Positions 6,137-64,000 are shown, counted from the first letter of the stretch. The stretch: 64,000 bases of DNA from Eggerthellaceae bacterium (GCA_036552405.1 JAXKCR010000001.1:64642-128641), one strand, 5' to 3'. Notes: generated by a model not told the origin, from the sequence alone. Translations and numbers: made by a program.

Positions 6137-6347
6137 GCGAATCGTCGCCCACGGTCTTGCTCGTACGCGAAGATATTCGGTATAAAATTATCAGTCACCG
6201 TCATATGATGCACCACCGCCTCGCCGCTCGCAGACTACGCCGAAGCGAGGGCGGACGTCTTCGCCTCGGCCGCATGCGAACCGTGCCGAAACAAAGACGG
6301 GCAGGTGCCTTTATACATGACAGAACGGAACGAATTTAGGAGGCCGC

Positions 6348-45731: not shown

Positions 45732-47417
45732 TTAACCACGAAGGCGACGGCGCGCAACTAACGCTCCCGCACCCGCGAGGAGGGCTACACCAGCAGCGGC
45801 GCCCGCAAGAACAAAACCGTCATCGGCTGTTTTAGCCAAAGATGTTTTCTCTCCATCCGCCTTAGAGGAAGAGGGATCACTGGCATTGCCGGCACCGGGA
45901 GTGCTCGGATCGTTGGTGCCAGGCTTGTCTGGATTCACGTTCACGATGTTGCCCAGGCTGATTCCATTTGCAGTTGCATACTGTTCAGCGGTTTTATAAT
46001 CCGCAAAGTAAACTGGTACACCATTTGGATTCGGAACCTTATAAGCTCCGCCGTTTTCCATGATGGATTCTTCGTCGTCTACCAAGAAAGCGCCATCACG
46101 GAAGAGCAGCGCCGACCCTTCGACCACATAAGGAACGACCGCGTCGTCAGAGAAGATCCCCGCCGTTACTTCAGCAGGAGACTGAGGGTTGCTCCATTCG
46201 GAATTGGCACCATCTTTCCAATAATAAGTGGCTACCGTTGCGCCCTGCTCGCTGGTTATGATGCCGCCGTCAATATGGATAACTGGAACCGAATCATATC
46301 CCGGGCGATCGACAACGGAAATAGCTGCGCCATCAGGAATAGCACCGTCTTCGGTTCCCTTGCTATCACGATCGTCTGCGCCCGTTGCCGTGATCTTCGC
46401 ATCGCCCGCTACGTTAAGCTCGCCCGAGCACATTTGAATACCACCAAGGCCCGTGATGGTGCCGCCGGAAACATTCAGAACGCCCGTCTGGGGATGGTAG
46501 ATCGCGCAGGTTCCAGTAGAAACAAGCGAGCCACCCTTAATATTGATGGTAGTGCCTTCGAAGCCCACGTTCTTCGAGCCATTACCAGATACCGCATAGG
46601 CCTTCGCCTCAACGGAAGCGCCATCCTCAAAGGTAAGAACACCCTTGGAGCCTAAGACGGTAATGCCACCTTCAGTGGACTCAATAATAGTGCCCGCCCC
46701 TACGGTCAGATCTCCCTGCGTCTGGATCATAGCGTTCACATTCGCTTCCACCGTATCAGGGAATTCGAGCACGCAGCGATCGACCGTCATAGTGGCATCG
46801 GTACGCACGCAGATCGCTGCTTTGTTCGCCTGATCAGAAGCAACGACAGCACCCGTTTGCGCATCGGAGGAATCGAACAAGTGCAGAGCGGATGTATCGC
46901 CACCTGTTTTTACACCGATTTCAATCACTATCGCGTTCGCTGCACCACGGATCTCATAACCCGCCAGGTCGAGTTCGATGGCCTTGGAGCCCGTTATCGA
47001 AACCTGCTCGGCCAAATCGACATTGCTCACCAAAACGATCTTCTGGCCGTTCTGGGCAGCATTGACGGCATCCTGCAGGGTGATGAACTCCTGCCCATCG
47101 ATTACCGCAACGCCAGCGGCTTTGGTCTGAGGCACGGCAGCGCGGGTCATCGTGCTCTGCGCAGAAGCCGTTACGGAATTTCCTTCTAATGCTCCTTCTC
47201 CAGAAGCAGAGGAAGAGCTCGCCGTATTCCCGCCAACGCCGGTTCCTGCATCTCCATTAGCGCCAGTGCCTCCGTTGGCGCCCTCGACCATTTCGAGCGT
47301 ATTATCCGCTGACGTGATTACTTCATCATCGGCCCATGCGACGGGCACGGTCATCGACGTAGCCAACGCAACGGCCGTTACGACCGCAAGTGGCTTAGCC
47401 ATTCGCTTCTTCGTCAT
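45732..47417 (-). CDS. cell-wall-anchored right-handed beta-helix (pectate-lyase-fold) surface protein, LAKTA-type sorting signal
   Basis: Signal peptide MTKKRMAKPLAVVTAVALATSMTVPVAWA. Repetitive G-x-I/V-T beta-helix rungs. C-terminal ...SLAKTADDG followed by a hydrophobic stretch and RRRLRG. Confidence 0.75.
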   Translation of the reverse strand: MTKKRMAKPLAVVTAVALATSMTVPVAWADDEVITSADNTLEMVEGANGGTGANGDAGTGVGGNTASSSSASGEGALEGNSVTASAQSTMTRAAVPQTKAAGVAVIDGQEFITLQDAVNAAQNGQKIVLVSNVDLAEQVSITGSKAIELDLAGYEIRGAANAIVIEIGVKTGGDTSALHLFDSSDAQTGAVVASDQANKAAICVRTDATMTVDRCVLEFPDTVEANVNAMIQTQGDLTVGAGTIIESTEGGITVLGSKGVLTFEDGASVEAKAYAVSGNGSKNVGFEGTTINIKGGSLVSTGTCAIYHPQTGVLNVSGGTITGLGGIQMCSGELNVAGDAKITATGADDRDSKGTEDGAIPDGAAISVVDRPGYDSVPVIHIDGGIITSEQGATVATYYWKDGANSEWSNPQSPAEVTAGIFSDDAVVPYVVEGSALLFRDGAFLVDDEESIMENGGAYKVPNPNGVPVYFADYKTAEQYATANGISLGNIVNVNPDKPGTNDPSTPGAGNASDPSSSKADGEKTSLAKTADDGFVLAGAAAGVALLAGAGALVARRRLRG

Positions 47418-47790: not shown

Positions 47791-50700
47791 TTACTTCGCG
47801 CGATGAGATCCTGACTTGCGGCGCATCTTGACTGCTCCGATCACCAGACCAGCGCATGCTATTACCGCGAGAGCACCAAGGCCCATTACCAGAGGACCAA
47901 GGTTGTCGCTCGTATCAGGCAGTGCCGGAGGCTCGGAGCCGCCAGGCTTTCCGCCATCAGGCTCAGACGGGTCCTTAGGCTCGGTATAAGTGTTGGAGAA
48001 CAGGATCAGCTCGTCCATTCCTTCGATATCAGCGACCAGGCTGCCTTCTTTGTTGTCGGTCACCGTGATCTTGATCTTATGCTCGAAGCCGTCGTAGGTC
48101 ACGCCTTCCTGGCCGTCATTCACTTCGACGATGGTGTATTCGTATTCACCAGCCGTATCGAACGAAAGCTCTGGGAACTGGATGGTGCCCTCTTCATCGT
48201 TCTGGGCTTCAGCCACCACATTGCCATCTTTGTCAATCACTTGGAAGGTGAAACGTGCATCTCCGGGCTTAGCGTTGTTGAGTAACTTGGCCGCGCCCAG
48301 GCTCACCGTTGCAGGCTTAGCTTCGTAGGTATTAGTGAAGAGCGCTTCCTGAGCGTCTTTGAGCTCATGCTTCACGCTCAGCGTGCCATTAGCGTTATCC
48401 GTCACCGAAGCATGAATGCTATAGTCCTTCGTGTCGTAGGTCACGCCACCTTTGTCGCCAGCCACCTCGCGTACCAAGTAGTCGTGTTCGCCTGGTGCGC
48501 TGTAGGTAATAGTCTCGAACGTCACCTTGCCGTAAACATCATTGGTGCCCTTTGCAACTACGGTTTCTACGCCGTCAACCATTTCCACCAGTTCGAAGTT
48601 GAACTCGCCAGCAGCCATATCACGACCATCAAGCTTCTTCGTGATGGCGATCTGATCAGTCACACTGGATGGCTCGGGCGTAGTGATGCTGTAGGTATTG
48701 GTGAATTGGAACAACGGGGCAGGAGCCACCGCGCTCGTTTTAGCACTCAACGTTCCGTCACCATTGTCCGTCACGGTCACCGTAAAGGTCTTGCCCGTTT
48801 TGGCGGCGTCATCATTCGCCACACCAGGAAGATTGCCGTCCTCGGTCACCGTATAGGTAAAGACCTTAGTGCGCTCGGTTCCGCGCGTCTGCGCATCACC
48901 CGTATCGCCGAACACACTTTCCATGGTGAAGCTGATCTTACCGAACACCACATTACCGGCAGCGTCATTTGTTGCTTCAGAAACGACTGCGCCATCATCA
49001 TTCTTGGGCATTGGGGCAGCATTGCCGTCCTCGTCCACGCCGGAAATTTCAAACGTATATTTGCCTGCAATACCAGCCTGGGTCAGCTTAGCGTCTGCAG
49101 CCAGTTCCTGCGGCGAATAACCGAGCACCTTAATACCAGCAATATCGACCTCAGCCTGAGCATCAACGCCGTATGTGTTCTTGAACGTTATGCCGTCCGA
49201 ACCACCAGGATAGGTCACGCCAACAGAAAGAGGCGTGCCGTCATGCGCGTCCGTTACCGTAACGTTAATGGTCTGTGGCTGGGTCACAGCAGCTACACCA
49301 TCAGCCGTAACTTCTGATTCGGATACAAGATACTGATAGGTGTACGTGTAAGCCCCGGTATCTGCATTAATAGCGCGCGTTACCAAGTTGTCCTTCAGGT
49401 CCTGCTCAAGCGAAGCAGTTGTGTACTCTATCTTCTCGAAGACAATGCTGCCGTCGGCCTTGCTCTTGCCCGTAGTCACGGGTTCGGCATCCGGATCGGT
49501 ATTCGCCATATTGGTCACAACGAAGGAAAACTCATCGTCCACCATTGGACGATTGGTGAGCGTCTTCGTGGCATTGATCTTCACGTTGCCCTCGCCACCA
49601 AGGATGGCGGGGTCCGCTTTATAGCTGTTTGTGAACGGAACAGTCACTTTGCCACCGGTCTGCGGTTTATCAGACGTTGCCACCTTGGTCTCAATAACCT
49701 CGCCCGCAGCGTTCTCAACCGTTGTGGTAACAGTTAGGACACCTGTCACTGCATCAAAGGTCGGAACCACCTTGACGGTATAGACTTCCTCGTCGTTGGT
49801 GTAGCCGTCGCCGCCCTTCTTGGTCTCGCTGACCTGGAAGACATAGACCTTGTTCGCATCCTCATTGGTGAACTTCACATCGCCGCCAAACGTCACAGGC
49901 ATGATCGCCGGCGTACCACCATTCGTGGCAGCACTCGACTTAACCACAGTACCCGTTTCGGCAATGCTGAACTTCTGAGCAGTTTCAGCGGCAGTGTCAC
50001 CCGCAGGCACAACCGTCCACTCGAACTGTCCTTCGGTCATGTCGCGGCCAGTCAGCACCTTGCTGATTTGAATGCCGACCGTTGCATTGTAATCAACACC
50101 CGTTGAATAGGTATTCACGAAGTCCGCATTCGCAGCAGTCACTACCGCAGCCGCCGCCGTCAAGTTGCCAGCACCGTCATCGGTTAGGGTCACCGTGATG
50201 GTAGCCGTATCGGGATCCTTCGCAATACCCGCAATATTGGTATCGTTCTCGGTCACGTTATAAGTGAATGTCTTGCTGCGCTTGCCCGTTACGGAATCAT
50301 AATCCGCACCAGCAAGGTCATCGAGAGTGTAATACAGCTTGCCGAAGCCGAAGGTTACCTTGCCGTCCTTCACTTTGTCATAAGAAGCAGTGGCTGTGCG
50401 GCTCGTCTGGATGGCGCCCTGCTCATCGCGCAGCGGCGCATTGTTCTGCGGCGTCAGCGTAAAGGTGAATTCGTCGCCTTCTTGCCAGTCACGGCCACTG
50501 ATGCTCTTAGTGAAGCGTGCATCCGTGTCGGCCTGCGCACCCCCAGGAGCAGTAGTGTAGGTGTTGGTGTACGCAACAACCACGTTGCCACCAGCCACAA
50601 CAACACCCTCACCATCATTAGCAGTCTCACTAGAGTCGGTAACGGTCGTCGTGTAACCAGGCTTTCCGGACTCACTCACTACGAACCGAGCACCAGCTGG

Positions 50701-53700
50701 CAATCCCTCGAAGGTGATGTACTGGCCGTGCTTCAAGAGGAAATTCGGGTCACCTTCTGTAAAATCGACCACACTCGGGTAATTAACCATTACACCGGTT
50801 CCGCTGTAGGTGTACTCACCGGTAAGAAAATTGCCATACGCATCAGTAAGTATGACCGTAAAGCTGAAGTCTTTGTTCGTATCGCCGTTCACGACGTTCT
50901 TGGATATGGTTAGCGAGCCAGGCTCGGCAACTTCATTGTCCACCGTATTGGTGTTCTTGTCGTTGACTGTTGCCTTGTTGCGGACAAAGCCGGCCGCATC
51001 CTCAGTTACCTTCGCGCTGAAGGTGATCTTTACCTTTGCGTTTTCAGGAAGCTTGGCGACGGTCCAGGTCAACACTACCTTATCATCCTTGTCTTCCACC
51101 GTAGGATCGAGAGCTTTCTGCTCAACATCGTTAATGTAAACCGTCGCCTCGTTATTGTATGCGAGACCTCGCAACAGTTCGTCGACCACAGTCGCGGTGG
51201 CTCCATCGCCCTTGTCGTTAACGAACTCGATGGTGTAGGTGAGTTCCTGGCCAACCTTAACCTCGCCCGTTGCGTCAACGGACTTATGAGGAACAGGGTT
51301 TACAACTATATTGGTGTCGGAAACACGATCGTCGATCCTGATGGAGGCCACATTCTCGATCCTCGTCACAGCATCCTCAGACACCTCCACCTGGAAGGAA
51401 ACGGTGCCCGTAGCATTAGGCTGCTGTGCGCCCAAGCTCCAAGTAATAATGAGCGATTCCTCATCGTAGCTGATGTTCTCACCCTGGATGGACTCTTTGA
51501 CCAACTCCGTACCAGTAGGAACAACGTCGGTCACAGTGATATCGGCCACAGTCGCACTACCGTTAGCATTGACAGCATCATTTACCCAATCAATGGTGTA
51601 GACAAGCGTGTCGCCTACGCCCACAAGCTGACCATCAATGGAAGTCGTCGGATCTTTAACAAGCGCAACGTCCTTCTTCTGCTCGGGCTTCTTATAAGTA
51701 TTGGTGAACTGGAGAGTCTCAACAGCCGTACCGCCGTTTACCACAAATCCACCGTTACCATCATCGGTAACGGTGATTTTCACCGTCTTTGGTTCCGCAT
51801 CGTACTCAACGCCGGGCACCTTATCCTCATCGTTCTCCGGCGCAACTTCGCTTACCGTGAGTTCATAATCGCCCGCTTTATTGAGCACGATACCCGAAAA
51901 CGCGAAGTTACCGTTCTCGTCAGAGGTCACATTGCCAGCAGGTAGCGTGATGCCGCTCGCATCACCGTTAGTGAGTTCGATCTTGAACTCGTAGCCCGCA
52001 AGCTTAATGTTCTCCTGTTCGGTGCCTTCTGCATCAGCAATGGTCTTCTTACCTGCAATATCAAGCGAACCCGTCGCGCTGTAGGTGTTGGTCCAAGTGT
52101 CGGATCCAGAAGGAGCACGCAGCATCTCGGTCTTTAGTGTGCCATCGCCATTATCGGTAACCGTCACGTAAACGATGCGCTCATGCGGGTCGTAGGTCAT
52201 GCCGTTCTGGCCGTTGCCGGTCTGAACTTCGGTGATTTTGAACGCATAGGGGTAGCCCGTCACCGTGGTCTTATTGAAGGTGATGTCGCCGAATGTCTTG
52301 GTGGCGGAATTGGAGCCCGCCGCTACATCACTGTATGCAATTGTGAGTTCCGTCTGATTCGGCATCACGACGTCACCGTCCGTCACGGCGGTCACCGTAT
52401 CAGCGGTATTGCCGGCAGTATAAGGCTCGATCTTAAAGGTGAAGCTGTCTCCATCCTTCCAATCGCGACCTTCCAGCACCTTCGTAACCTTAAGGTTATC
52501 CACACCGATGAACTCGCCGGACGCCGCATAGGTGTTCGTCCAAGCAATTCCGGCAATATCGAAGATTTCATTGTTGAGGTCAGCGTCGGTCAAAGCCGCA
52601 CCATCAAGTGTGGCGGTCTCAACCGAAAGCGTGCCGTCAAGATTATCTTTCACATCAATCTGAAGCGTATGAACGGTCGTATCGTACGTCACGCCATCTT
52701 TGACCCCACCATCAGGAATAACCTCCGAGAAGGTGTATGTATAAGAACCTGACTGAGTAAAGGCGATCGTTCCAAAATTGAGCGTTTGTGAACTATTGCC
52801 CGCAACGTAGCTCGGAGCAAGAATACCCTGGTCATTCAAACCAGAAAGCTTGGGGTTCGTAGCTGCCGAAGTAACCGCAAAGCTAAAGTCATCGGTGCTC
52901 TTAAACGCGCGGCCCTCAATAGCCTTCGTTCCCGCAACGGTCACCGAGCCCGTAGCGGCATAGCGGTTCACAAAGGCAGCCGCAGAAGCGCCATCGCTGT
53001 AAACTACCGGCCCATCAAGCTCCAGCACACCGTTGTTATCTTTCACTTTTACCGTAGCGGTAGCCGTGTGACGGTCCCAGGTCATGCCGTTACCGTCAGC
53101 GCCGAAGCCCGTTTCCTTGATGTTGAATACGTACGTGCCTGCCTTCTTGAAGGTGATGTTGTCGAAAGAGAAATCCTTTGCAACGCCGTCCTCGAGGCCG
53201 TCCCTAATGGTCTGCGTCAGGGTTGTGGCGGAAGCATCATTGCCCAAAACGATGGAATCGTTCAGGAGCGCAGCTGCAGTGCTAGAACCAGTCGGTGCAG
53301 CCAGCTCGAAAGTGAATTCTTCTCCCTTTTTGCTATCGCGTCCTTCAAGCGTCTTGCTGCCCTTGATGGCGGTGTCACCGGTGAGCACCAGATCCGTCGC
53401 ATCGTAGCTGTTGGAGAAAACAACTCGCTGCGCCTGAGGATCAGTTATAGCAACGCCATCCTTTTTGTAAACAGCAGTCACTCCGAATATACCATCCGTA
53501 ACGCCCGCGGTAGCCTCGATCGTCCAAACCGAGGAGTCGTAGGTCATGCCGTCCTTGGTGTACGTGCCGTCCCCGTTGTCCGTAGCATCGGCGGGGATCA
53601 CCTCAGTCACTGTATAAATGTATGTGCCCTGGTGCGCATCATCGAAGGTGGCCCTGCCCATCTCAATGAAGCTCAGGTCGTTCTGTACGGTATAGTAGTC

Positions 53701-55185
53701 GCCTTCATCCTGGAGACCAGAGAACACAGGTGCACCATCACTGAGCTCCACCTTAAAGGTGAACATGCCATCTGCTAAAGGCTTCGACCCCGTCAGATCC
53801 GTATAGCTCTTCGACCCTTCAGGACCCCATTGTGCCGTTTCTACAGCGTAGGTGTTCACGAAGCCAAAGAGGGCCGAGCTCTCTTCAAAATCTCCGTTCA
53901 ACGGGTCGCCATTGTCGTCGTGCGCCTTCTTTACCTTTACGGTCGGCGTCATGGTGCCATCGCCATTATCCACTACTTCGATGATGACTTCGTAATCCGC
54001 TCTGGAGTAGTCGATGCCGGCAATAGATCCGGTTTCTTCCCTGATCAGGTATTTATACGTACCCGGCTTCATGAACGTAATTTCGCCAAATCCCTTTTCT
54101 TTGGGATCATCTTGGCTCGTAATCTTCACGGCGGCATACGGATAACCACCCGGCGTAGTGCCAAGAGTTACATCACTGCTGGCAGCAGGAAGGGGGCTAT
54201 CCTCCCCGTTACTGGAAAGATATGACACGAGCCAGAATTCGTAGCTGTCGCTCTCTGACCACGTATAAGGTGAAGTTTCATCAGCATTCGTGATCGTCTT
54301 CGCTACGCCAAGGTTGTTTACCGTAGTCGCTCCCACTGCATATGCATTTGCGTAGGAAACGGACACGGGTGCTAGAGCCGTGGTGTTGTTGTTTGCATCG
54401 TTGTCGGCATCAGCAAGGTTACCCGAGATCGTCCGCTGGTCCGCATCGACAGTCGCGTCCACATCGCTACCCTTGTTCGGAGTCGACGTGAAACCGGACG
54501 GAAGATCGTTCTCTGTCACCGTATATGTGGTGCCAACGGGCAGGTCCTCGATGACGGCCTTCTGACCATGCTTCAGCGCGAACGTATAAGTATTCTTACC
54601 TGTCTTGACTTCAATAGGATCACCCACCGAAGCGCCCGTTGTGTCCGTGACTACGAGCTTATACGTTGCATTCGGGTCCCCCACGTTTTGCGGAATATTA
54701 AGGTTGAGAGTGAACTGGAATTCTTGGCTCCTCTGCAGCTCTGAAAGCTTTGTAGCGTCCATGCCTTCATAGCCGGTAACGTCCTTAGAAATCTCAAGAT
54801 CGTTCACTTGCTGGTTGGCAACGCGCACCGTTGCCGTGCCCGAGAAGAGCGAACGCAGGTTGTAGTCAACGTTCATAATGGAACCAGCATCTTCATTGAA
54901 GTACTTCTGAAGGTCCGTCTTGTGTGTTGAATCACCATGCTCAAGGCACTGCGTGATGCGCGCTAGCGGCCAGCCGGTGTCACTCTGCACCGAACGTGCG
55001 CCGCCTTCTTCAGCGGGACCGTATTCCAAAGCGCCGTGCTCGGAGCCATAGGACAGATGGACCTCCTCCGCGCCAGGCACATCGGTCCAGTTCGGATTCG
55101 CCGCCTTAGGGTCCCCGGTCTGAAGCGTCAGCTTGATATCGTGCAGGGTGGTATCGATGCTGTCATTGGCGGCGAACTGAGCCAT
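47791..55185 (-). CDS. giant adhesin A, C-terminal segment: ~20 tandem SpaA-isopeptide/Cna-B-like Ig-fold repeats + LPDTS sorting signal (same frame as 55237-57672, separated by one TAA)
   Basis: Recurrent F(T/V)NTY ... G(R/K)D(W/M)xxG(D/E)xFxF repeat signatures every ~120-140 aa. Terminal EPPALPDTSDNLGPLVMGLGALAVIACAGLVIGAVKMRRKSGSHRAK. No signal peptide at its own first Met. Confidence 0.8.
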   Translation of the reverse strand: MAQFAANDSIDTTLHDIKLTLQTGDPKAANPNWTDVPGAEEVHLSYGSEHGALEYGPAEEGGARSVQSDTGWPLARITQCLEHGDSTHKTDLQKYFNEDAGSIMNVDYNLRSLFSGTATVRVANQQVNDLEISKDVTGYEGMDATKLSELQRSQEFQFTLNLNIPQNVGDPNATYKLVVTDTTGASVGDPIEVKTGKNTYTFALKHGQKAVIEDLPVGTTYTVTENDLPSGFTSTPNKGSDVDATVDADQRTISGNLADADNDANNNTTALAPVSVSYANAYAVGATTVNNLGVAKTITNADETSPYTWSESDSYEFWLVSYLSSNGEDSPLPAASSDVTLGTTPGGYPYAAVKITSQDDPKEKGFGEITFMKPGTYKYLIREETGSIAGIDYSRADYEVIIEVVDNGDGTMTPTVKVKKAHDDNGDPLNGDFEESSALFGFVNTYAVETAQWGPEGSKSYTDLTGSKPLADGMFTFKVELSDGAPVFSGLQDEGDYYTVQNDLSFIEMGRATFDDAHQGTYIYTVTEVIPADATDNGDGTYTKDGMTYDSSVWTIEATAGVTDGIFGVTAVYKKDGVAITDPQAQRVVFSNSYDATDLVLTGDTAIKGSKTLEGRDSKKGEEFTFELAAPTGSSTAAALLNDSIVLGNDASATTLTQTIRDGLEDGVAKDFSFDNITFKKAGTYVFNIKETGFGADGNGMTWDRHTATATVKVKDNNGVLELDGPVVYSDGASAAAFVNRYAATGSVTVAGTKAIEGRAFKSTDDFSFAVTSAATNPKLSGLNDQGILAPSYVAGNSSQTLNFGTIAFTQSGSYTYTFSEVIPDGGVKDGVTYDTTVHTLQIDVKDNLDGTLSVETATLDGAALTDADLNNEIFDIAGIAWTNTYAASGEFIGVDNLKVTKVLEGRDWKDGDSFTFKIEPYTAGNTADTVTAVTDGDVVMPNQTELTIAYSDVAAGSNSATKTFGDITFNKTTVTGYPYAFKITEVQTGNGQNGMTYDPHERIVYVTVTDNGDGTLKTEMLRAPSGSDTWTNTYSATGSLDIAGKKTIADAEGTEQENIKLAGYEFKIELTNGDASGITLPAGNVTSDENGNFAFSGIVLNKAGDYELTVSEVAPENDEDKVPGVEYDAEPKTVKITVTDDGNGGFVVNGGTAVETLQFTNTYKKPEQKKDVALVKDPTTSIDGQLVGVGDTLVYTIDWVNDAVNANGSATVADITVTDVVPTGTELVKESIQGENISYDEESLIITWSLGAQQPNATGTVSFQVEVSEDAVTRIENVASIRIDDRVSDTNIVVNPVPHKSVDATGEVKVGQELTYTIEFVNDKGDGATATVVDELLRGLAYNNEATVYINDVEQKALDPTVEDKDDKVVLTWTVAKLPENAKVKITFSAKVTEDAAGFVRNKATVNDKNTNTVDNEVAEPGSLTISKNVVNGDTNKDFSFTVILTDAYGNFLTGEYTYSGTGVMVNYPSVVDFTEGDPNFLLKHGQYITFEGLPAGARFVVSESGKPGYTTTVTDSSETANDGEGVVVAGGNVVVAYTNTYTTAPGGAQADTDARFTKSISGRDWQEGDEFTFTLTPQNNAPLRDEQGAIQTSRTATASYDKVKDGKVTFGFGKLYYTLDDLAGADYDSVTGKRSKTFTYNVTENDTNIAGIAKDPDTATITVTLTDDGAGNLTAAAAVVTAANADFVNTYSTGVDYNATVGIQISKVLTGRDMTEGQFEWTVVPAGDTAAETAQKFSIAETGTVVKSSAATNGGTPAIMPVTFGGDVKFTNEDANKVYVFQVSETKKGGDGYTNDEEVYTVKVVPTFDAVTGVLTVTTTVENAAGEVIETKVATSDKPQTGGKVTVPFTNSYKADPAILGGEGNVKINATKTLTNRPMVDDEFSFVVTNMANTDPDAEPVTTGKSKADGSIVFEKIEYTTASLEQDLKDNLVTRAINADTGAYTYTYQYLVSESEVTADGVAAVTQPQTINVTVTDAHDGTPLSVGVTYPGGSDGITFKNTYGVDAQAEVDIAGIKVLGYSPQELAADAKLTQAGIAGKYTFEISGVDEDGNAAPMPKNDDGAVVSEATNDAAGNVVFGKISFTMESVFGDTGDAQTRGTERTKVFTYTVTEDGNLPGVANDDAAKTGKTFTVTVTDNGDGTLSAKTSAVAPAPLFQFTNTYSITTPEPSSVTDQIAITKKLDGRDMAAGEFNFELVEMVDGVETVVAKGTNDVYGKVTFETITYSAPGEHDYLVREVAGDKGGVTYDTKDYSIHASVTDNANGTLSVKHELKDAQEALFTNTYEAKPATVSLGAAKLLNNAKPGDARFTFQVIDKDGNVVAEAQNDEEGTIQFPELSFDTAGEYEYTIVEVNDGQEGVTYDGFEHKIKITVTDNKEGSLVADIEGMDELILFSNTYTEPKDPSEPDGGKPGGSEPPALPDTSDNLGPLVMGLGALAVIACAGLVIGAVKMRRKSGSHRAK

Positions 55186-55236
55186 GGTCTTAGCAAGCGT
55201 ACCCGTACCGCGAAGAACGGTTATGCCGTCATTTGC

Positions 55237-57672
55237 TTAGCCCGCATTGGCATACACACCCGTGCCGTCGACGTAAACTTCGATTACCTCATCATTGATC
55301 TGATATCCCGCTGGAGCTTTGGTTTCTTTCACCCAATAGGTTTTACCAGCGCCATCGGAATTCGCCACAAGGCCATCTTGACCCTCGAAGTATTCAGCGC
55401 CTTCAAGGTCAAGGGCATCTCCGTTTAGCTTTGACAGATTCCTAGTCGTTACGACACCAAGCGCAGTTGCATTGGGATTATCCGTTGGGTTTTCGCTATA
55501 AAGCGTGAATTCTGCACCCACTACCGGCGTACCGTTTTCATCTACCTTCTGCACCAGCAGACGGTTATACATGTCCGGTACGTTGAACGTGGCGGCAAAC
55601 TGACGGTGGAATCCGTAATCGTCGTACCCCGGATCATCCTCACGTAGGTTGTTTACAAGAACAGTATTGCCAGTAGTAGCCCCGCTCAGATCATTCGCCG
55701 TAGTGTAGTAGAAAGACACAACATATTCGGTTTCGGCTTCATCGCCCGTTACCCAGTAATACTTTTGAATGTTACCTGGCAACTCTGAAATATCGGCTTG
55801 GAACAAGCCGTTCGAATTAATAGCGAATTCGTGCGCGCCGCCGTTTTGAACCGCTTCGATCACGCCAGCGAAACCTGATGTATTGCTGTTCGTAAGCTTC
55901 CAGCCGCCTTCTTCGAGCGTACTGCCGTACACCCCGTGCCAGTTCGAAGCGTCCGTTATACCGCCAGCGCCATCACCGCGATGCAACACCACGGCAAACA
56001 GGGTTCCGCCTGTCTGGCCGTTATATTGCAGGTCTTTCCCGTTAATGGTAATTTCCCCACCGTTTTGCGTTTGCATGACGGAAGGCGAAGTAATGGATTC
56101 GCTCGCGTTGGCGTATGCGCCCGTTTCCCAATAGTTGGTGCTATACACTACGCCCGATTGGTGCGAGTATTCAATATGAATGTCACCCGAAAGACGATAT
56201 CCCACCGGGGCTGAAACTTCCTTTAGTACGTAATGGGTGCACTGGTTGTTATGGTTATACAGATCCTCGAACGTAATGAGCGTGTCGGTACTATCAACAA
56301 GCGTTATGCGACCATTACTGTCAGTCGTGCCCTCAGCAAGCACACCGCTAGTAGTGTTGTAGTTATCATCGGCCGCATAGAGTTCGAACTCGGCACCCGC
56401 AATGGGATTGCCTTCCTGGTCGACCTTCACAACCGTGCTTTCCGGCACGGTTACAAGGTTGAATTTAAGGCTCATGTTGGAGTCTGCGCTACCGCGCTCA
56501 AGATAGAAGAACTTGAGGGTATGGAGCGAATCGTCGGGGAAGGTGTTGCCCTCCCAGCCTTCCGTACTCATGCCGGCTTTGTCGTACAGATCCTTGAGGG
56601 TGGTATTCGCAACAGTCTGCAGCGTGCCATTGCCCTGAACACCCGTCACTTGAACTTCGCCGGTTGCAAAGTTGATATCAAGATCAGCCTTGGAGTGTAT
56701 GCCACCCAAATCGCCCACGAGAACGCCGTCGATGTAAACCCATACGTCGTCATCGCCGCTAAAGTGATAGGTTACTTCCTCGTTCTTTGCAGTTAAACCA
56801 CCCGCGGGCTGCACAAAACGCGTGGTCATAGAGGCGCCGAACCAGTGGTTCACGTCGTTGGATTTAGCACTGATTCCTTTTTCGACAAGCTGGTTGCCCT
56901 GCTCAGTGAACACATCGCTCGCGGTATTAAACGGGAAGAACTGCCCGTCAGCACTCAGCAGGGGGTCTTCGGTATGAACCGCTTTTGTATTGTAGACAGT
57001 GAAGTCATTGGTGCTCTCATCGAACGAAGCGAAATTTTGCGTGCTGTCGTAATAGTAGTAACCGTCGGCATCTACCTGCAACAATCCACCAACATTAGAA
57101 AATGCAAGCTTGCCGTCAGACTGAATATTCGTGTCAAAGAGATAGGCAAGAGACTCAACATTATTGATGCCAATACTGTTATTTTGCACAAGCGTGGGGT
57201 AACCATCAGACCCAAGCTCATCTTCAACAATTCCTGTACGAGGGAGTGGTTGCCAATTATTGACGCCACTAATGCCTGAAGTGAACTTGAAATCATGCCC
57301 ACTATTAATGCCAGAATCAGAGTTGGCTATTTGCGCCTTCTCTTCTTCCGTTAAACCCGCTGCAGGATAATCGTTGGCATCACGATCCCTGGTCCAGTAA
57401 TCAAACAGGTTGATCGTAGTGCCGTGAGGGGTAACCGTGTCGACCGTATAGTCGGAATATGCGCGGGTTTCTGTGCTATTGCCAGTTAAATTGGCAAAGA
57501 ACTCTCCGACTGGATCAGCATAGGCCGCCTTTGAGGCAACGCCTGCCGCAATAACAAGTGCTACAGCCATCAAAACCGCGATGAGGCTCTTTTTACGAGC
57601 GGGATTTTCAGTGCGGGCTATTCCGTGAAGAGGCCGCCCCCCCCCCGTCATTTTTTTCAACTTGAATGCCAT
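55237..57672 (-). CDS. giant adhesin A, N-terminal segment: signal peptide, PA14/fibro-slime-like adhesive domain, Cna-B-type domains; ends at in-frame TAA 55239-55237
   Basis: Signal peptide ...RKKSLIAVLMAVALVIAAGVASKAAYA. FSGDDDVWVYIDGVLVGDLGGIH fibro-slime/PA14 motif. VKVDQEGNPIAGAEFELY and LVQKVDENGTPVVGAEFTLY Cna-B motifs. Reading through the TAA gives 17 codons, then the Met of the next ORF in the same frame. Confidence 0.75.
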   Translation of the reverse strand: MAFKLKKMTGGGRPLHGIARTENPARKKSLIAVLMAVALVIAAGVASKAAYADPVGEFFANLTGNSTETRAYSDYTVDTVTPHGTTINLFDYWTRDRDANDYPAAGLTEEEKAQIANSDSGINSGHDFKFTSGISGVNNWQPLPRTGIVEDELGSDGYPTLVQNNSIGINNVESLAYLFDTNIQSDGKLAFSNVGGLLQVDADGYYYYDSTQNFASFDESTNDFTVYNTKAVHTEDPLLSADGQFFPFNTASDVFTEQGNQLVEKGISAKSNDVNHWFGASMTTRFVQPAGGLTAKNEEVTYHFSGDDDVWVYIDGVLVGDLGGIHSKADLDINFATGEVQVTGVQGNGTLQTVANTTLKDLYDKAGMSTEGWEGNTFPDDSLHTLKFFYLERGSADSNMSLKFNLVTVPESTVVKVDQEGNPIAGAEFELYAADDNYNTTSGVLAEGTTDSNGRITLVDSTDTLITFEDLYNHNNQCTHYVLKEVSAPVGYRLSGDIHIEYSHQSGVVYSTNYWETGAYANASESITSPSVMQTQNGGEITINGKDLQYNGQTGGTLFAVVLHRGDGAGGITDASNWHGVYGSTLEEGGWKLTNSNTSGFAGVIEAVQNGGAHEFAINSNGLFQADISELPGNIQKYYWVTGDEAETEYVVSFYYTTANDLSGATTGNTVLVNNLREDDPGYDDYGFHRQFAATFNVPDMYNRLLVQKVDENGTPVVGAEFTLYSENPTDNPNATALGVVTTRNLSKLNGDALDLEGAEYFEGQDGLVANSDGAGKTYWVKETKAPAGYQINDEVIEVYVDGTGVYANAG
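57637..57657 (-). repeat. homopolymeric tracts (G)10 and (A)7 on the coding strand within codons 5-12 of adhesin A
   Basis: + strand CCCCCCCCCC (57637-57646) and TTTTTTT (57651-57657). mRNA reads AUG GCA UUC AAG UUG AAA AAA AUG ACG GGG GGG GGG CGG. Confidence 0.85.
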
Positions 57673-58093
57673 GCCAACGCCTTTCGCCCTCTGCTGTTGC
57701 GAGAAATCGAACACCAGAATGCCGATTTCCTGCAGTTTCCCCAGTTTTTTAGGGTTAAAGAATACAACAAAATCCGAAATAAACCGGGGGAAATTAATGC
57801 TATTCGACCTTGAAATGCAACAATTTTTTTGCGAAAAGCCAAAAATTAGCAATAAAAATGCACCATGTTTGCATTTTTTCGCAACCATTAAGCCCCTCGA
57901 GCAAAAAAGGAGTCCGTGTGGCGTCCGAGAGCGGGGTAACAACCGAGCGCACGGACGAAGAGTTTGATAGACGAAAGCGACTCAACAACCAGACTATGCA
58001 CCTGAACACTTATTCAGCCACCCACACAAAGCCAACACGGCAAATGAAGAACCACCAGAAAACCGACTGACATAAAATTTGCCCCATGCACAA

Positions 58094-58123
58094 CAAGGAC
58101 CCCTCACTACGGAAGGGTCCTTG
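58094..58123 (-). terminator. conserved hairpin downstream of the adhesin B stop (CAAGGACCC-N12-GGGTCCTTG)
   Basis: Same stem as 47711-47740. Flanking ~150 bp including the gene 3' end are ~88% identical between the two loci. Confidence 0.5.
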
Positions 58124-58173
58124 CTTAGGTTCATGTGCCGAAAACCAGCGGCACGCTTAGCCGTTCATCTCCG

Positions 58174-61100
58174 TTACTTCGTGCGGTGAGCTCCTGATTT
58201 GCGGCGCATCTTGACCGCTCCGATTACCAGGCCAGCGCATGCAATTACTGCCAGCGCGCCAAGACCTATTACCAAAGGACCAAGGTTGTCGCTCGTGTCG
58301 GGCAGTGCCGGAGGTTCAGGATCGCCGGGCTCCGCCGGCTCTTCAGGTGCAGTATAGGTATTAACGAACATGGGATCCTTGTCGTTAGCATATGCAACGC
58401 TAGCGGACAGGTGACCTTGACCGTCATCAGTAACGGTAACCGTAGCCTCATACTGAGTCGTATCGTAGGTCACACCTTCCTGACCATCATTCACTTCAGC
58501 GATGGTGTACGTATAAGTACCCGCCTTAGTGAACTCAACCGCAGGGAAGATCACCGTACCAGAAGCGTTGTTCTTGGCTGTAGCCACAACATCGCCTGCT
58601 TCATTGCGTACCTGGAATTCAAACTGGCCATCCTCAACGGTGCCACCTTCAAGCTTCTTGCTTGCGCCGAAAGTTACGCTCGTCGCAGCAGGCTCATAGG
58701 TGTTCTCGAAGATGATCGGCGTATCAGTGGTAACGTCCTCTGTTCCGTCGAGAACAGACCACGTTACGGTAAGTGTACCATCGCTGTTATCCTTGACATT
58801 AGCGGTCACCTTATAAGTGTCCACATCGTAAGTGATGCCGTTATCAACGTTGGTAGATGCAACCTCCTTGAGCGTGTAGTCATAGGAGCCAGGCTTCGCA
58901 AACGTGATAGCGGACATGGCAACATTACCATCGCTATCGTTCACGCCGCTTGCGGCCTCCTTACCGTCAGCGTCAATCATGACAAATTTGAATTCTCCGC
59001 CAGCAAGGGCCATATCTCCATCAGGACCGTTGTAGTCCTTGGTGATTTTGAATCCGCCATTAGCGGTGACGGAGCTATCAACAGGATCAACAGAGTACAC
59101 GTTGGTGAACGCGAACTTGGCGCCCGTTGCCGGGTCAGAGGTCACGGTCATCGTGCCGTTGCCCTGGTCGGTCGCAGTAACGGTGAAGGTCTGAGCATTG
59201 TCGTTATCCACACCGGGAACGGTGCCATCTTCTGTAACCGTATAGGTGAAGGTCTTGACGCGTGTGCCGTCGAGCTCTTCATCAACACCATCAAAGATAC
59301 TCATGTCGAACGTAACATCGCCAAAGGAAACGCTACCCGATGCATCGTTGTTTGCGGTAGTCGTTCCAGGCATCGGAGCGCCCATTTCGCCACTCAGCGT
59401 GAAGGTGTAATCGCCCGTAATGTCGGGCAGGTTGTAAACACTGTCCTTAAGATCGTCACTGGGAACAAGAGCCTTGGAACCCGAGAATGCGAGCGTAGCC
59501 GATTCCCCTGCGCCATACGTATTCGCGAACGCAAGGTTATCACCAGAGCCCTCTGGGTAGATGACCTTGGCGGAAAGGCTGCCATCAGCATCGTCGGTCA
59601 CCTGGACCGCGATGTTGAAAGATCCGACATTCGCCGTAATACCGCTATCTGCGGCTACCGCATCTTCGGAAACAGTGTAAGAGTAGCTATACACGTAATC
59701 CGGGAAGTGAGTCGTCTTGTCCACGGTAGCTACACCGGACGCGACATCGACAGTCAACTTGTCGAGGGTGTACTCGATGTCATTGAATGCAACGTGGCCC
59801 TGGCTATCGTTGGTGCCAGTAGTAACGGTATTGCCCTTCACGTCCTTAATCGTGAAAGTAAACTCTCCATCATCCAGAACCCCATTAGTGAAGGTCTTGG
59901 TGGCATTGATGGACACATCCGCACGCTCGCCAATAATGATGGGGTTGGACGTGTAGGTGTTATTAAAGGTCGCGACTGGGCGAGGCTGCGTAGTGTCGTT
60001 GTTCGTCAGCACCTGTTCGGATACAGCCGTGCCGCTTTCATCGAGGACCTGCGTGATAGCCTTCAGGTTGCCCTCGCCGTCGTCTTCAACGGCGATCTTC
60101 ACCGTATAAACGGTATCGTCGTAGCCATAGTTGCCCGTAGCGGTTGCGGGAATGATTTCCTGAACCGTGTACTGGAAGGTCTTACCCGCATCGTCCTGAG
60201 TAAGATCGCGCTTGGCCCTGGGGCCCATCACGGTAACATCGTATCCGCCACCGGTGGTGTTCTTATATTCAGTACCATTCGTGCTAACACCCAGAAGCGC
60301 AGCGGAATCATCGTCGGCCGCCGTTACCTTGAAGCCGAACTGATCGATTTCAATAAGTCGACCCGTGAGGTTCTTCACGATGTCGAATCCACCACGCAGG
60401 CCATCGAAGTCGAGGTTCGAGTTGTAACGGTTGGTGAACACGTTGTTCTCCGCACGGGCGACCGTGGTGAGCTCTTCGGCGGTCACATTGCCCTTGCCGT
60501 CATCCTTAAGCGTAATGGTAAGTGTTGCCACGTTGGTGGAATACGTCACGCCGGCGAGCCTATCCGCTGCATTTTCAGGGATAACCTCGGACACCGTATA
60601 GACGAAGGTCTTCGAACGAGTGCCATCGGCACCCCAATCCACGTCCTTGATGTCGTCGTACGTGAATGCAATCGTGCCGAAGCCGAACGCCTGGCTACCG
60701 TCGGTGTCGTTCGCACCATTGACGGTCACCTGAGTACACTCCGCACCGTCCTTGACGGGCATAGGAGCGCCCTCGGTCTCCGAGGTGATGTTGAACGTAA
60801 AGTTGTCGTTCTCTGTCCAGTCGCGACCAGTAAAGGTCTTGGTAAACATGCCTTCGGTCGAAACACCGTCACCGGTGACAACAGCACCGTAGGTGTTGGT
60901 GAACAGATCGGAGTTATCCACCTTATCAACCTGCTCAGCAACCAGCTGACCATTCACATCGGTCACCTTCACCTTAATAGTGTAGGTGTGGCCGTCGAGC
61001 GCCCAACCATCAACGGTCGTGCCGCCATCGGTCTCGGTCACGTTGAAGGTATAGTAGTTCTCCCCTTCGGTTGCCTTGGTGAACTTGATGTCACTGAAGG

Positions 61101-64000
61101 AAATTGTCTCAGTGGCACCGTTCGTGATAGCGGGAGAACTTGCATACATAGCAAGCGCGCGATCGGCGTGCGAAGTGAATACAACGTGCCCATCACGAAT
61201 CGCATTGTTGGTGAAATCATCGGCGCCGCCCAGGATGAAATCAAAGGCGCCCTCAGCGGCATCCTTGCCCACGACCTTCTTTTGAATGGTCGGGGTGAAG
61301 GGCGTGGTCTCTGTCGCTGTATAGGTATTGGTGAACGAAAGATTCGTGTTGCGGTTTTCATCCACCGTACACGTCAAATTGCCCTTACCGTCATCCTTAA
61401 CCTCTACCGTGAAGCCTTCCACGGCATTCGTGTAACCGATGCCCGGGAGCTTGTCGGTGTCGGCGGGAATGACCTCAGTCACCTTGAACGAGTAGGTGCC
61501 CTCCTTCGTGAACTTCACGCCATCAGCGAATGCGAACGTGCCATCCTCACCTGAAGTAGCGTCACCGGGAAGAATCACGGTCTTGGCAGTGACAGCCGCC
61601 TGGGTAGCATCGTCATTGGCCTCGATCTTAAACTTAAAGCCCGCAAGGCCACCGTTCCAAGGGTTTGGATCGGCCGAAACAGTCTTCGTGCCGCTCACTG
61701 GCAGAGCGCCAGATGTAGCATAGCTATTCACGAAGTCGGCATTAGCAGTGACGGGAACATTCGTGTCGACGTTCTGGTTCCACACGCTTGAAACAACGGT
61801 TTCGGTCCTGCCGTTAAGTGTCTTATCGAGGGTGGTGATGATTTCCCACTTACCCGTAGACGTATGCATCACCGGCTTGATGGTCAGGGTGTACACCGAC
61901 GGATCGTAGGTGTATCCATCCTTGGTCCATCCAGTAGTATTCTGGGCGGTACCAGCATCCTTGTAGTGAGTCTCGCCGTTGCCGACACTCGGGTTGGTAG
62001 CGTCGTCGGGAATAACCTCACTAAAGGTGTAGCTGAAAGTCTTACCGGAATCAGTATTGTCAGCACTGTGGTTGAAGACAATATCGCCACCATTAGGCAT
62101 CGTTACCTTCGTACCATCCGTGCCAGCAGCACCAGGAACATTAACAGAAAGCGTACCAGCAGGAAGCTGAATCTTCTCGGCAGACGCCGCGTCAGCAGCC
62201 TTAACCGTGAAGCTGAACTTGCCCTGCTCCATACCGCGGCCGTTCAAGGTCTTGGAGAGCTGGAACGTCACCGCTTCGCTGAAGTTGAATGTTGAAGAGA
62301 AGCTATTGGTAAAGGTGCTGGAACCAGCGGTAACAGCAGCACTTTCAACCTCGAGCCCGCCCGTAGTGGTGTTGTCCTTAATCTTGATGGTGATATATGC
62401 GGTATTTGCCGAATAATCCATACCAGCCGCTGGCTGATCAGGCTTAATCTCGGAAACGCGATACACATACGTGCCAGCCTCATTGAACGTCAGGTTACCC
62501 AGACCAAAGTCGGCCGAGTTGCCGTTATCGGCAGGCTTATTAACCGTGATAGGAGAGGACGCGGGCGTAGGCATCTTGGCGAGCTCAGTGGCCGCCAGGG
62601 AACCGTTAAAGGAATGCTTGGCAGCTGTGAACGAGAAGGTCTCGCCGCTCAACCAATCGCGACCCACAACCTCCTTGGTCAGCGGAACATTGGTCGTAAC
62701 GTCAACGTCCACGGGGGATGCCTTATAGGTATTCACAAAGGCGATCGTGCCGTCGGGAATCTTCTGGCCCGTATCAAACGTGCCCAGTTCCTCGCTCTCG
62801 ATTTCACCGTTGGCGTTTTCGGAAAGACGGAACACGGAGGTAAGCGTGCTCAGCGTGCCGTTTCCATTGTCGGATACCACAACAACAATCTCATACTGAT
62901 TCTTGTCGTAGGTCACACCGGGAAGCGTGGTCTCGGGATCAACCTCGTCGACGGTGTAGATATAAGCCTTGCCGGCATCCGCCTGGGTGAAGGTAATGCC
63001 GTTCAGCATCTTGATGCCGTCGGCCACACCGTTGCCAGCAGCCTTATTGGAGGCCGTCTCGGAGAAGCCGTTGGGGCCCGCAATGGTGAAGCTGAACTCG
63101 TTTGCGGCCATGTCGCGACCGTTGAGTGTCTTGCTCACATACAGGTCAACCGACGTGCTGTAGTTAAGCGACGCGCGATAGGTATTCACAAAGGCGGCAT
63201 AATCTGTTGTTTTACCGGCGCCGTTGCCGTAGTCGCCAACCGTTGCTGTAAGCACACCATTATTGTCGACAACCTCGACAGTCACCGTACATGTGTGGGC
63301 GTCATAGGTCATGCCACCCGGGTTGGTACCAGGAATGGTCTCGTTGATGTTGAACGTGTAGGTACCCGGCTTAGTGAACGTAGCATCACCAAAGCTAAAG
63401 AACTGCTCCACACCGTTTTTGGCGTTGGAAACCGTAGCGGTCGTGCCGTTCTTAAACGTGATGGTACCGTTCGTCATGGCAGCAGTAGTAGCCGAGTTCG
63501 CACCGGTAATGGTAAACGTGAAGTCCTCGTCTGTACCGGCATTGCGACCATCAAGGGTCTTAGAACCACGAATGCTTGCATCGCCCGTCAACACAGCCGG
63601 CGTAGGCGTGTAGGAGTTGGCGAACGTCACGTGAGTCTTTGTTCCACCCTCGGCGCTGCTCACAGCAGACCACGCAACAGAAACTGCCTCTGCATCCGGA
63701 TTGTCAGGATCAACCGTCGGGTCAACGCTCACGGTAGCCGTCACGATCCACTCGGCAGGATCATAGGTCATGCCCTGGTAGGTGTACTTGTTGCCGGCAT
63801 TAGCCTCAACAGGAATGCTCTCCTTAACCGTATAGCTAAAGGACTGACCATCCATGTCCGAGGTGAACTTCAGCGTGGGGAAGTTAATGACGCCAGTAGC
63901 CGTATGTCCAAAGCTAAACGATGCACCCGCATCAATGCCAGTGGGTACAGGAGCGCTGGCAGCATTGTCACCCGTAGGAGTTGCCGTAAAGCTGAACTTG
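58174..64000 (-). CDS. giant adhesin B (paralog of A), partial: >1,940 codons of SpaA-isopeptide/Cna-B-like repeats + LPDTS anchor; N-terminus lies beyond window end
   Basis: Frame stays open to position 64000. Same repeat signatures and a near-identical C-terminal sorting signal (…ALPDTSDNLGPLVIGLGALAVIACAGLVIGAVKMRRKSGAHRTK). Confidence 0.85.
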   Translation of the reverse strand, partial: KFSFTATPTGDNAASAPVPTGIDAGASFSFGHTATGVINFPTLKFTSDMDGQSFSYTVKESIPVEANAGNKYTYQGMTYDPAEWIVTATVSVDPTVDPDNPDAEAVSVAWSAVSSAEGGTKTHVTFANSYTPTPAVLTGDASIRGSKTLDGRNAGTDEDFTFTITGANSATTAAMTNGTITFKNGTTATVSNAKNGVEQFFSFGDATFTKPGTYTFNINETIPGTNPGGMTYDAHTCTVTVEVVDNNGVLTATVGDYGNGAGKTTDYAAFVNTYRASLNYSTSVDLYVSKTLNGRDMAANEFSFTIAGPNGFSETASNKAAGNGVADGIKMLNGITFTQADAGKAYIYTVDEVDPETTLPGVTYDKNQYEIVVVVSDNGNGTLSTLTSVFRLSENANGEIESEELGTFDTGQKIPDGTIAFVNTYKASPVDVDVTTNVPLTKEVVGRDWLSGETFSFTAAKHSFNGSLAATELAKMPTPASSPITVNKPADNGNSADFGLGNLTFNEAGTYVYRVSEIKPDQPAAGMDYSANTAYITIKIKDNTTTGGLEVESAAVTAGSSTFTNSFSSTFNFSEAVTFQLSKTLNGRGMEQGKFSFTVKAADAASAEKIQLPAGTLSVNVPGAAGTDGTKVTMPNGGDIVFNHSADNTDSGKTFSYTFSEVIPDDATNPSVGNGETHYKDAGTAQNTTGWTKDGYTYDPSVYTLTIKPVMHTSTGKWEIITTLDKTLNGRTETVVSSVWNQNVDTNVPVTANADFVNSYATSGALPVSGTKTVSADPNPWNGGLAGFKFKIEANDDATQAAVTAKTVILPGDATSGEDGTFAFADGVKFTKEGTYSFKVTEVIPADTDKLPGIGYTNAVEGFTVEVKDDGKGNLTCTVDENRNTNLSFTNTYTATETTPFTPTIQKKVVGKDAAEGAFDFILGGADDFTNNAIRDGHVVFTSHADRALAMYASSPAITNGATETISFSDIKFTKATEGENYYTFNVTETDGGTTVDGWALDGHTYTIKVKVTDVNGQLVAEQVDKVDNSDLFTNTYGAVVTGDGVSTEGMFTKTFTGRDWTENDNFTFNITSETEGAPMPVKDGAECTQVTVNGANDTDGSQAFGFGTIAFTYDDIKDVDWGADGTRSKTFVYTVSEVIPENAADRLAGVTYSTNVATLTITLKDDGKGNVTAEELTTVARAENNVFTNRYNSNLDFDGLRGGFDIVKNLTGRLIEIDQFGFKVTAADDDSAALLGVSTNGTEYKNTTGGGYDVTVMGPRAKRDLTQDDAGKTFQYTVQEIIPATATGNYGYDDTVYTVKIAVEDDGEGNLKAITQVLDESGTAVSEQVLTNNDTTQPRPVATFNNTYTSNPIIIGERADVSINATKTFTNGVLDDGEFTFTIKDVKGNTVTTGTNDSQGHVAFNDIEYTLDKLTVDVASGVATVDKTTHFPDYVYSYSYTVSEDAVAADSGITANVGSFNIAVQVTDDADGSLSAKVIYPEGSGDNLAFANTYGAGESATLAFSGSKALVPSDDLKDSVYNLPDITGDYTFTLSGEMGAPMPGTTTANNDASGSVSFGDVTFDMSIFDGVDEELDGTRVKTFTYTVTEDGTVPGVDNDNAQTFTVTATDQGNGTMTVTSDPATGAKFAFTNVYSVDPVDSSVTANGGFKITKDYNGPDGDMALAGGEFKFVMIDADGKEAASGVNDSDGNVAMSAITFAKPGSYDYTLKEVASTNVDNGITYDVDTYKVTANVKDNSDGTLTVTWSVLDGTEDVTTDTPIIFENTYEPAATSVTFGASKKLEGGTVEDGQFEFQVRNEAGDVVATAKNNASGTVIFPAVEFTKAGTYTYTIAEVNDGQEGVTYDTTQYEATVTVTDDGQGHLSASVAYANDKDPMFVNTYTAPEEPAEPGDPEPPALPDTSDNLGPLVIGLGALAVIACAGLVIGAVKMRRKSGAHRTK

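Follow-up and report, generated by a model that had tools for sequence, protein, structure and literature searches.

The classical simple sequence repeat (SSR) contingency loci of Campylobacter, Neisseria, Haemophilus and Helicobacter place poly-G/C tracts in genes for surface structures, and the repeats of the Neisseria opa genes lie in the region coding for the signal peptide. The Coriobacteriia (Eggerthellaceae, Collinsella) are common human-gut commensals that have been linked to drug metabolism and inflammation, and to our knowledge almost nothing is known about the regulation of their surface adhesins. Here we consider a stretch of 64,000 nucleotides (nt) from a metagenome-assembled genome (MAG) named "Eggerthellaceae bacterium" (the 64-kb window, whose coordinates are used throughout), and in it the gene of a giant sortase-type stalk adhesin, which has a run of ten G (G10) in its leader and a TAA codon within its reading frame. 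The reading that we prefer, with a probability of about 65%, is that of one anchored adhesin gene whose hypermutable 5' G tract serves as a slipped-strand ON/OFF switch, and which carries an unrelated nonsense lesion in addition.

A switch of this kind has been described in Bifidobacterium breve UCC2003, where a G tract undergoing replication slippage switches the first gene of sortase-dependent pilus clusters (bbr_0113 and bbr_1889; Penno et al. 2022, PMC9187656). In the mouse gut, tracts of in-frame length become enriched, and several Bifidobacterium species have G10-G12 tracts (PMC9187656). For Eggerthella, Coriobacteriia and Eggerthellaceae, nothing relevant on G tracts or phase variation is found in the searchable literature. 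This agrees with an earlier note on the same DNA, which had called homopolymer switching poorly documented in the Coriobacteriia, yet the mechanism is documented in Bifidobacterium, a member of the same phylum (PMC9187656).

One gene interrupted by a private stop codon

The two long open reading frames (ORFs) of the locus, 55237..57942(-) and 47791..55185(-), are in a common frame and are separated by the TAA at 55239-55237 and 17 sense codons. By exact look-up, the NCBI annotation has them as two coding sequences (CDSs), MEF2654902.1 for the N-terminal ORF (883 amino acids, aa) and MEF2654901.1 for the C-terminal ORF, both located on a MAG contig of 276,714 bp. The question is whether they are two genes or one. 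To answer it we use three conspecific loci that were found via the same 90% cluster, namely L011 (ENA ERZ28752567, a 1.96-Mb contig) and L012 and L013 (Logan assemblies of SRR18498148 and ERR13612586), in each of which the protein is called as 3,259 aa starting at M35. The window is 99.92-99.94% identical to these loci over 26.2 kb (14-19 mismatches and one gap), and all four conspecific sequences are mutually 99.92-99.96% identical over 26-30 kb. There are no conspecifics among the GTDB species representatives (the best match, an Enorma, has 40% identity and just G5 at the 5' end) or in the metagenome contigs searched by protein patterns.

The two ORFs are a single giant adhesin gene, because they are in a common frame, because they form one continuous ORF in the three conspecific strains (3,259 uninterrupted codons of adhesin body in L011, L012 and L013), and because homologs are unbroken across the junction. 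All of the ~40%-identity homologs cross the TAA site as single proteins. Two separate genes are ruled out by this continuity, which every homolog shares. The C-terminal ORF of 2,464 codons lacks a signal peptide, and its ATG at 55185 is an internal Met located 17 codons past the TAA; this ORF is an untranslatable remainder without its own start context or export signal, and not a second gene.

The TAA itself is a private GAA to TAA nonsense mutation, neither a gene boundary nor a conserved recoding site. The G to T change at 55239 is one of ~8 single-nucleotide polymorphisms (SNPs) private to the window; since L012 and L013 have 8 and 9 private SNPs, the MAG is not unusually error-rich. The second SpaA match covers residues 705-805 of 811, and the stop follows shortly after it. 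The locus has what a gene split by a nonsense mutation is expected to have, in that relatives keep a sense codon at the site and that export signal and start context are missing from the downstream ORF. A stop conserved among orthologs, as read-through or recoding would call for, is not seen: the codon is GAA in the three strains and in the closest ortholog from another species (L001), and GTG in the next ortholog (L002). Programmed read-through of the TAA is ruled out, the stop being private and a sense codon standing there in all orthologs. The lesion is best read as unrelated to the G-tract switch, irreversible and limited to the window MAG.

These results bear on several claims of the earlier note. 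That the two in-frame ORFs, split by the TAA and 17 sense codons, make up one protein is borne out by the homologs and by the three strains; the length of ~3,380 aa given for the joined protein becomes ~3,293 aa when counted from ATG 57672. For the TAA the note had offered a part in an ON/OFF switch, programmed read-through or a recent nonsense mutation. The first two give way to a single private G to T substitution, and the last is in accord with the GAA of the three conspecific strains. The note had also considered that orthologs might be two genes with their own starts and signal peptides, and they turn out to be single genes across the site. For annotation, MEF2654902.1 and MEF2654901.1 are to be merged as one nonsense-interrupted gene with its start at ATG 57672.

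The leader G tract in conspecific strains and homologs

We turn to the 5' end of the gene. Translation from the ATG at 57672 (ATG1) begins MAFKLKKMTGGGRPL..., and its codons read ATG GCA TTC AAG TTG AAA AAA ATG ACG GGG GGG GGG CGG. This ATG is probably the start of the adhesin, as judged mainly by comparison with L001 (P0001; 81% identity by BLASTP, 74% over a 1,467-codon alignment). Upstream of the tract, most of the differences between the window and L001 are synonymous when read in the ATG1 frame (GCA/GCG, TTC/TTT, TTG/CTG), and a stop read from the L001 sequence sits 7 codons upstream of the ATG equivalent to ATG1. Past the tract, L001 keeps the peptide GGGRPL(H/R)GIARTE..(R)KKSLIA of the main frame, and the leader as a whole is conserved there at the amino-acid level in the main frame. 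Because the gene is read in the ATG1 frame before the tract and in the main frame after it, a tract of 3n+1 bases would be the ON state. The product from ATG1 opens MAFKLKKMTGGGRPLHGIARTENPARKKSLIAVLMAVALVIAAGVASKAAYA/DP, a typical signal peptide with n-, h- and c-regions, in which the slash marks the predicted cleavage site.

Neither TTG 57942 nor the NCBI ATG (the 883-aa product) is retained as the start, both being ruled out by the upstream stop of L001 and by the AT-rich upstream region, and the annotated start of MEF2654902.1 lies probably ~72 codons too far upstream. Both the NCBI start (MVAKKCKHG...) and TTG 57942 fall in the AT-rich, apparently non-coding segment 57673-57942. The 27-nt non-coding block ATTTTGTTGTATTCTTTAACCCTAAAA upstream of the gene (Table 1) is probably a promoter or operator. 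A consensus scan for promoters and terminators over 57500-58300 gave nothing exceeding the shuffled background.

The G10 run is the sole G/C run longer than 7 in the 64 kb. Dinucleotide-preserving shuffles contain a mean of 0.47 G9 matches, and the 2 matches observed are reached by 12 of 100 shuffles, so that the run by itself is just mildly improbable; it is the position, the recurrence in homologs and the polymorphism that give it significance. GGG is also the rarest Gly codon of the adhesin gene (21/325), hence three GGG codons in a row are not accounted for by codon preference. The tract is G10 in the window and G9 in L011, L012 and L013, and this is the sole indel over 26 kb. Versions with G8, G9, G11 or G12 each run into a stop after 17-21 codons (17 for G9). 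Within the G9 frame, TTG34 and ATG35 are the only canonical starts that precede the mature protein; both lie inside the h-region, and they would give a leader without a charged n-region. The G9 tract thus explains why gene callers began the 3,259-aa proteins at Met35, within the hydrophobic core. The locus therefore has three of the features by which an SSR contingency locus is recognized: a 5' coding homopolymer of at least 7 nt, truncation upon a change of +/-1, and a length that differs between near-identical strains with identical flanks.

Does such a tract exist in other proteins of this family? Homologs with 36-39% identity have one at the same leader position, namely P0047 (G10, in two samples), P0069 (G9) and P0111 (G7AGG); a cluster look-up of alternative alleles for P0047 and P0069 returned single-member clusters. 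A larger set comes from Collinsella-type homologs (L018-L053, 36 contigs), to which a pattern scan of metagenome contigs with exact 18-nt flanks added 33 loci, mostly from the human gut. The tract is G5 in 2 of these contigs, G6 in 4, G7 in 10, G8 in 10, G9 in 7, G10 in 2 and G12 in 1. It lies between an ATG with a strong Shine-Dalgarno sequence (MQELRE...) and the signal peptide (MSYGRRRGL...), and the leader from the Shine-Dalgarno sequence to the tract is nearly invariant and better conserved than the downstream coding sequence. The Collinsella tract may be either coding or part of the 5' untranslated region. Upstream of the Enorma phocaeensis homolog (L005:9900-9960) there are T10 and A8 runs, and E. 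burkinafasonensis (L003) has T7 and A5; the T10/A8 runs of Enorma are possible promoter-spacing homopolymers.

A comparison of orthologous loci had been suggested by the earlier note, and it is answered by variable G tracts at the same place in other Coriobacteriia homologs. The note had further proposed an A7 run followed by G10, in codons 5-12, as the slippage substrate. The G10 part holds, since that run is polymorphic. The A7 part does not: A7 has no length variation across the four conspecific sequences and is ruled out as a second switch. The runs occupy codons 6-12. The only other G/C run of 7 in the window, at 13629-13635(+), is followed after 9 nt by an ATG (MSEFSAIENTLF...); as a related tract it is ruled out, being a Shine-Dalgarno-like G-rich stretch of an uncharacterised ~270-aa gene.

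The giant neighbour of the gene, adhesin B (VWA + DUF7601 + FctA), is called with a length of 2,946 aa that starts at an internal Met, and its 3' part is found in the window at 58174..64000(-). Its 5' end, which is outside the window (L011:225-420), reads ATG TTG CTG AAG CGG AAA AAC ACT ACT followed by G7. The tract occupies codons 10-12; L013 has one G fewer (G6) than L011 and L012 (G7), and this length difference is the one other indel among those loci. In the G6 frame a good signal peptide (..KKGLLTIVLAMLLPASLG) is encoded and is followed by TGA, and one added G at TTTGGGCTG would link the signal peptide to the body. Given this frame break, adhesin B appears to have a broken 5' end in each of the three strains.

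Switching, decay and other readings of the tract

In the mechanism that we propose, the leader G tract would gain or lose bases through slipped-strand mispairing at replication. With G10 (3n+1), translation from ATG1 would continue into the signal peptide and the body, and the gene would be ON; with G9 or G11, translation would stop after 17-21 codons, the body would lack an export signal, and the gene would be OFF. In the window MAG even the ON frame would give just an 811-aa unanchored N-terminal fragment. This costly surface adhesin would be mostly OFF in the sampled populations, and lesions could build up unseen. Slippage would be frequent and reversible within a clone; the reading frames suggest that tract length controls protein output, and the switching may well be selected for.

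The selection acting on the gene can be considered at two time scales. Between species, the ratio of nonsynonymous to synonymous substitution rates (dN/dS, Nei-Gojobori) of the window versus L001 is 0.15 for codons 0-811, 0.28 for codons 811-989 and 0.26 for codons 989-1492. Versus L002 (P0002, 50-55% identity), the overall value is 0.21, and codons 811-1915 give 0.29. With 0.15-0.29 before as well as after the stops, the gene has long been under purifying selection, and its stops are of recent origin. Among the conspecific strains, the SNPs in the adhesin are 8 nonsynonymous (nonsense included) versus 2 synonymous, small numbers that are compatible with recently relaxed selection and that count against the switch.

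Other observations count against it as well. An allele with a complete exported protein is found in 0/4 sequences (three have G9 with an intact body, one has G10 with the TAA), and these are just four conspecific alleles, every one a consensus assembly. The lack of a full allele among the four fits a gene that is mostly OFF and equally supports plain decay. The L001 tract, GGGGGAGGG, is 9 nt long, interrupted (G5AG3) and fixed in the OFF frame, and its gene has a separate in-frame TAA. The species representatives of Enorma and Collinsella phocaeensis have just G5. The Collinsella tracts are spread about evenly over the three frames (11, 14 and 11 contigs; 11/36 in frame and 25/36 out), with an alternative start downstream, and because of these two features the frame may not be under selection there. 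Finally, nonsense codons, frameshifts or insertion sequence (IS) elements disrupt many homologs (Table 1), which suggests that the adhesin family recurrently loses function in gut Coriobacteriia assemblies.

Much of this would be expected if the adhesin were simply dispensable in the sampled habitat and the G tract were merely its most mutable part and the first to break, with no adaptive reversible switching. Such a decay would account for the 0/4 functional alleles, for L001 locked OFF with a TAA, for L002 with its TAG and TAA, for the further homologs disrupted by frameshifts or an IS element, for the likewise broken 5' end of adhesin B in three strains, and for the within-species ratio of 8 to 2. 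It does not sit well with the retention of an uninterrupted G9/G10 made of rare GGG codons and with the same-position tract of the 36-39% homologs, which point to maintenance of the tract itself; moreover, none of the three G9 strains has a break within the 3,259-codon body, and the low between-species dN/dS extends downstream of the stops. We consider plain decay unlikely, while giving it real weight.

An assembly or consensus artefact is a further concern, whereby the G10 and/or the T at 55239 would be wrong or a minority variant, or the G9 would be under-called, and the true gene would be intact and invariant. Long G runs are hard to sequence, Illumina G-tract problems and a discrepancy in tract length between RefSeq and culture are on record for Bifidobacterium (PMC9187656), and the L011 contig carries a name in the style of a long-read assembly. 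This explanation is improbable, however, with G9 found in three assemblies from separate samples and pipelines, with no other homopolymer (A6-A7, T6-T7) varying over 26 kb, with private SNPs in the window comparable in number to those of L012 and L013, and with substitution errors that create stops being rare in consensus sequence. A programmed recoding is more improbable still. In such a case G9 would be the normal state, transcriptional slippage (+G) or -1 ribosomal slippage on G GGG would restore the frame, and the TAA would be read through. The G9 strains and L001 do share the same -1 frame relative to ATG1, and transcriptional slippage on homopolymers is established (cited in PMC9187656). 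The interrupted tract of L001 would nevertheless abolish slippage by RNA polymerase, and the L001 gene has another stop; the TAA is private, with no stop there in any ortholog; no stimulatory element turned up, though none was searched for; and in Bifidobacterium a DNA-level mechanism is supported (PMC9187656). The slipped-strand switch with an unrelated nonsense lesion is, for these reasons, the reading that we retain.

Domain architecture and comparison with known systems

The features of the locus are collected in Table 1, together with the lesions of the homologous loci.

Table 1. Coordinates of adhesin features in the window and of lesions in homologous loci (each in its own numbering)
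Sequence	Feature	Position	Strand	Detail
Window	Giant sortase-type anchored stalk adhesin, one gene, ~3,293 aa	47791..57672	-	ATG 57672 to stop 47791-47793; broken at codon 812
Window	Probable true start, ATG1	57670..57672	-	AAAGG Shine-Dalgarno-like motif 7 nt upstream; L001 comparison
Window	27-nt non-coding block	57747..57773	-	Identical in the 81% ortholog (L001)
Window	A7 run	57651..57657	-	Codons 6-7 and first base of codon 8; A7 in four strains, A5 (AAAAAC) in L001
Window	G10 homopolymer (C10 on + strand)	57637..57646	-	Last base of codon 9 and codons 10-12 (Gly-Gly-Gly); in frame in window MAG
Window	Leader and signal peptide, residues 1-52	57517..57672	-	n-region ...ARKKS, h-region LIAVLMAVALVIAAGVA, c-region SKAAYA/DP; read from translation
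Window	N-terminal adhesive module	55240..57516	-	Fibro-slime (residues ~299-337 matched) and two SpaA/prealbumin-like domains
Window	Premature TAA, codon 812	55237..55239	-	GAA (Glu) in L011-L013 and L001; GTG in L002
Window	Stalk: 12 FctA/Spy0128-like isopeptide domains, 2 DUF7601, 2 DUF11, 2 DUF5979	47926..55236	-	Pfam, NCBIfam
Window	Cell-wall sorting signal	47794..47925	-	LPDTS, hydrophobic (transmembrane) segment, KMRRK... tail; read from translation
L001	In-frame TAA	3137-3139		
L002	TAG and TAA	62-64 and 5204-5206		
L019	In-frame TAG within FctA domain	~5509-5511		
L020	Short double frameshift	~6715		
L018, L006	Frameshifts			
L014	Truncated gene adjoining IS110 transposase	5219-6331		

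In the N-terminal ORF, the fibro-slime model TIGR02148 (NCBIfam) matches with 45 bits, which is exactly its cut-off, and the SpaA/prealbumin-like family PF17802 (Pfam) matches twice. In the C-terminal ORF, strep_pil_rpt (the streptococcal pilin isopeptide repeat of NCBIfam) matches 10 times, and ~14 stalk-domain ends of the "..N.Y" type are counted. The sorting motif LPDTS has S where the canonical motif has G, and sortase dependence is predicted from it; Pfam Gram_pos_anchor has no match on the adhesin C-terminus. With a signal peptide, isopeptide stalk repeats and an LPXTG-like motif followed by a transmembrane segment and a basic tail, the protein has the make-up of a sortase-anchored isopeptide-domain adhesin. 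The signal peptide, the fibro-slime domain and the LPxTS-type anchor that had been proposed for it are recovered; the proposed ~20 SpaA-isopeptide repeats are replaced by ~14 domain ends and by 2 SpaA and 12 FctA domains. The translations also agree with the proposal that, as the sequence stands, the N-terminal module lacks a cell-wall anchor and the repeat stalk lacks a signal peptide.

The neighbours of the gene in L011-L013 are the second giant adhesin, an MFS transporter, MerR, HAD and PFOR, and over 10 kb to each side the called genes include no sortase (PF04203), such as a pilus operon would carry along with further pilin genes; the locus is not a pilus operon. Downstream of the adhesin there is a 561-aa ORF at 45732..47417(-), without a Pfam match and with 5 nonsynonymous versus 1 synonymous differences across the four strains; in L013 its start ATG is changed to ATA (47415-47417), and it is called 5 codons shorter.

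What this locus adds is mainly that leader G tracts are recurrent and length-variable in an adhesin family of gut Coriobacteriia. We hold the chances to be even that leader poly-G tracts serve the giant fibro-slime/FctA sortase-anchored adhesins of gut Coriobacteriia (Eggerthellaceae, Collinsella) as a contingency device throughout the family. If they do, natural populations in the human gut would mix ON and OFF cells for every adhesin, of which the Collinsella G5-G12, the G9/G10 and the G6/G7 variants would be the footprint, and the range of the Bifidobacterium pilus switch would grow to include another class of actinobacteria and adhesins that are not pili. At the level of strains, adhesion and immune visibility would then vary stochastically, annotations as "two CDSs", pseudogenes or N-terminally truncated proteins would be systematically misleading, and ON/OFF ratios could be mined directly from metagenomic reads.

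We close with the comparison to known systems. In architecture, the adhesin follows the Spy0128/FctA- and SpaA-type LPXTG adhesins (annotated as "SpaA isopeptide-forming pilin-related protein" or "fibro-slime domain-containing protein"), with a signal peptide, a binding head, isopeptide stalk repeats and a sorting signal; unlike these, it is very large, has LPDTS and not LPXTG, and is interrupted by a nonsense codon. With the contingency loci of Campylobacter, Neisseria, Haemophilus and Helicobacter it shares a 5' coding homopolymer in a surface gene, truncation by +/-1 and a length that differs between strains. Those loci belong to Gram-negative pathogens, which have many of them per genome and for which rates have been measured, whereas here there are two tracts (adhesins A and B, A being the gene considered here) in ~30 kb. 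The B. breve system is similar in that it belongs to a gut commensal of the Actinomycetota and has an intragenic tract (G10-12 in Bifidobacterium) near the 5' end of a gene for a sortase-substrate surface protein. In both, the tract separates the start from the LPXTG-type body, the reference genotype is often OFF, and tracts recur in several species. The B. breve tract, however, lies between the start with its Sec signal and the LPXTG body, while the tract of the window lies upstream of the hydrophobic core of the signal peptide. The window gene, unlike the B. breve pilins, codes for a stand-alone multi-domain adhesin of ~3,300 aa, and in the class Coriobacteriia. The B. breve switch has been demonstrated experimentally, whereas switching in the window is suggested by polymorphism between strains.

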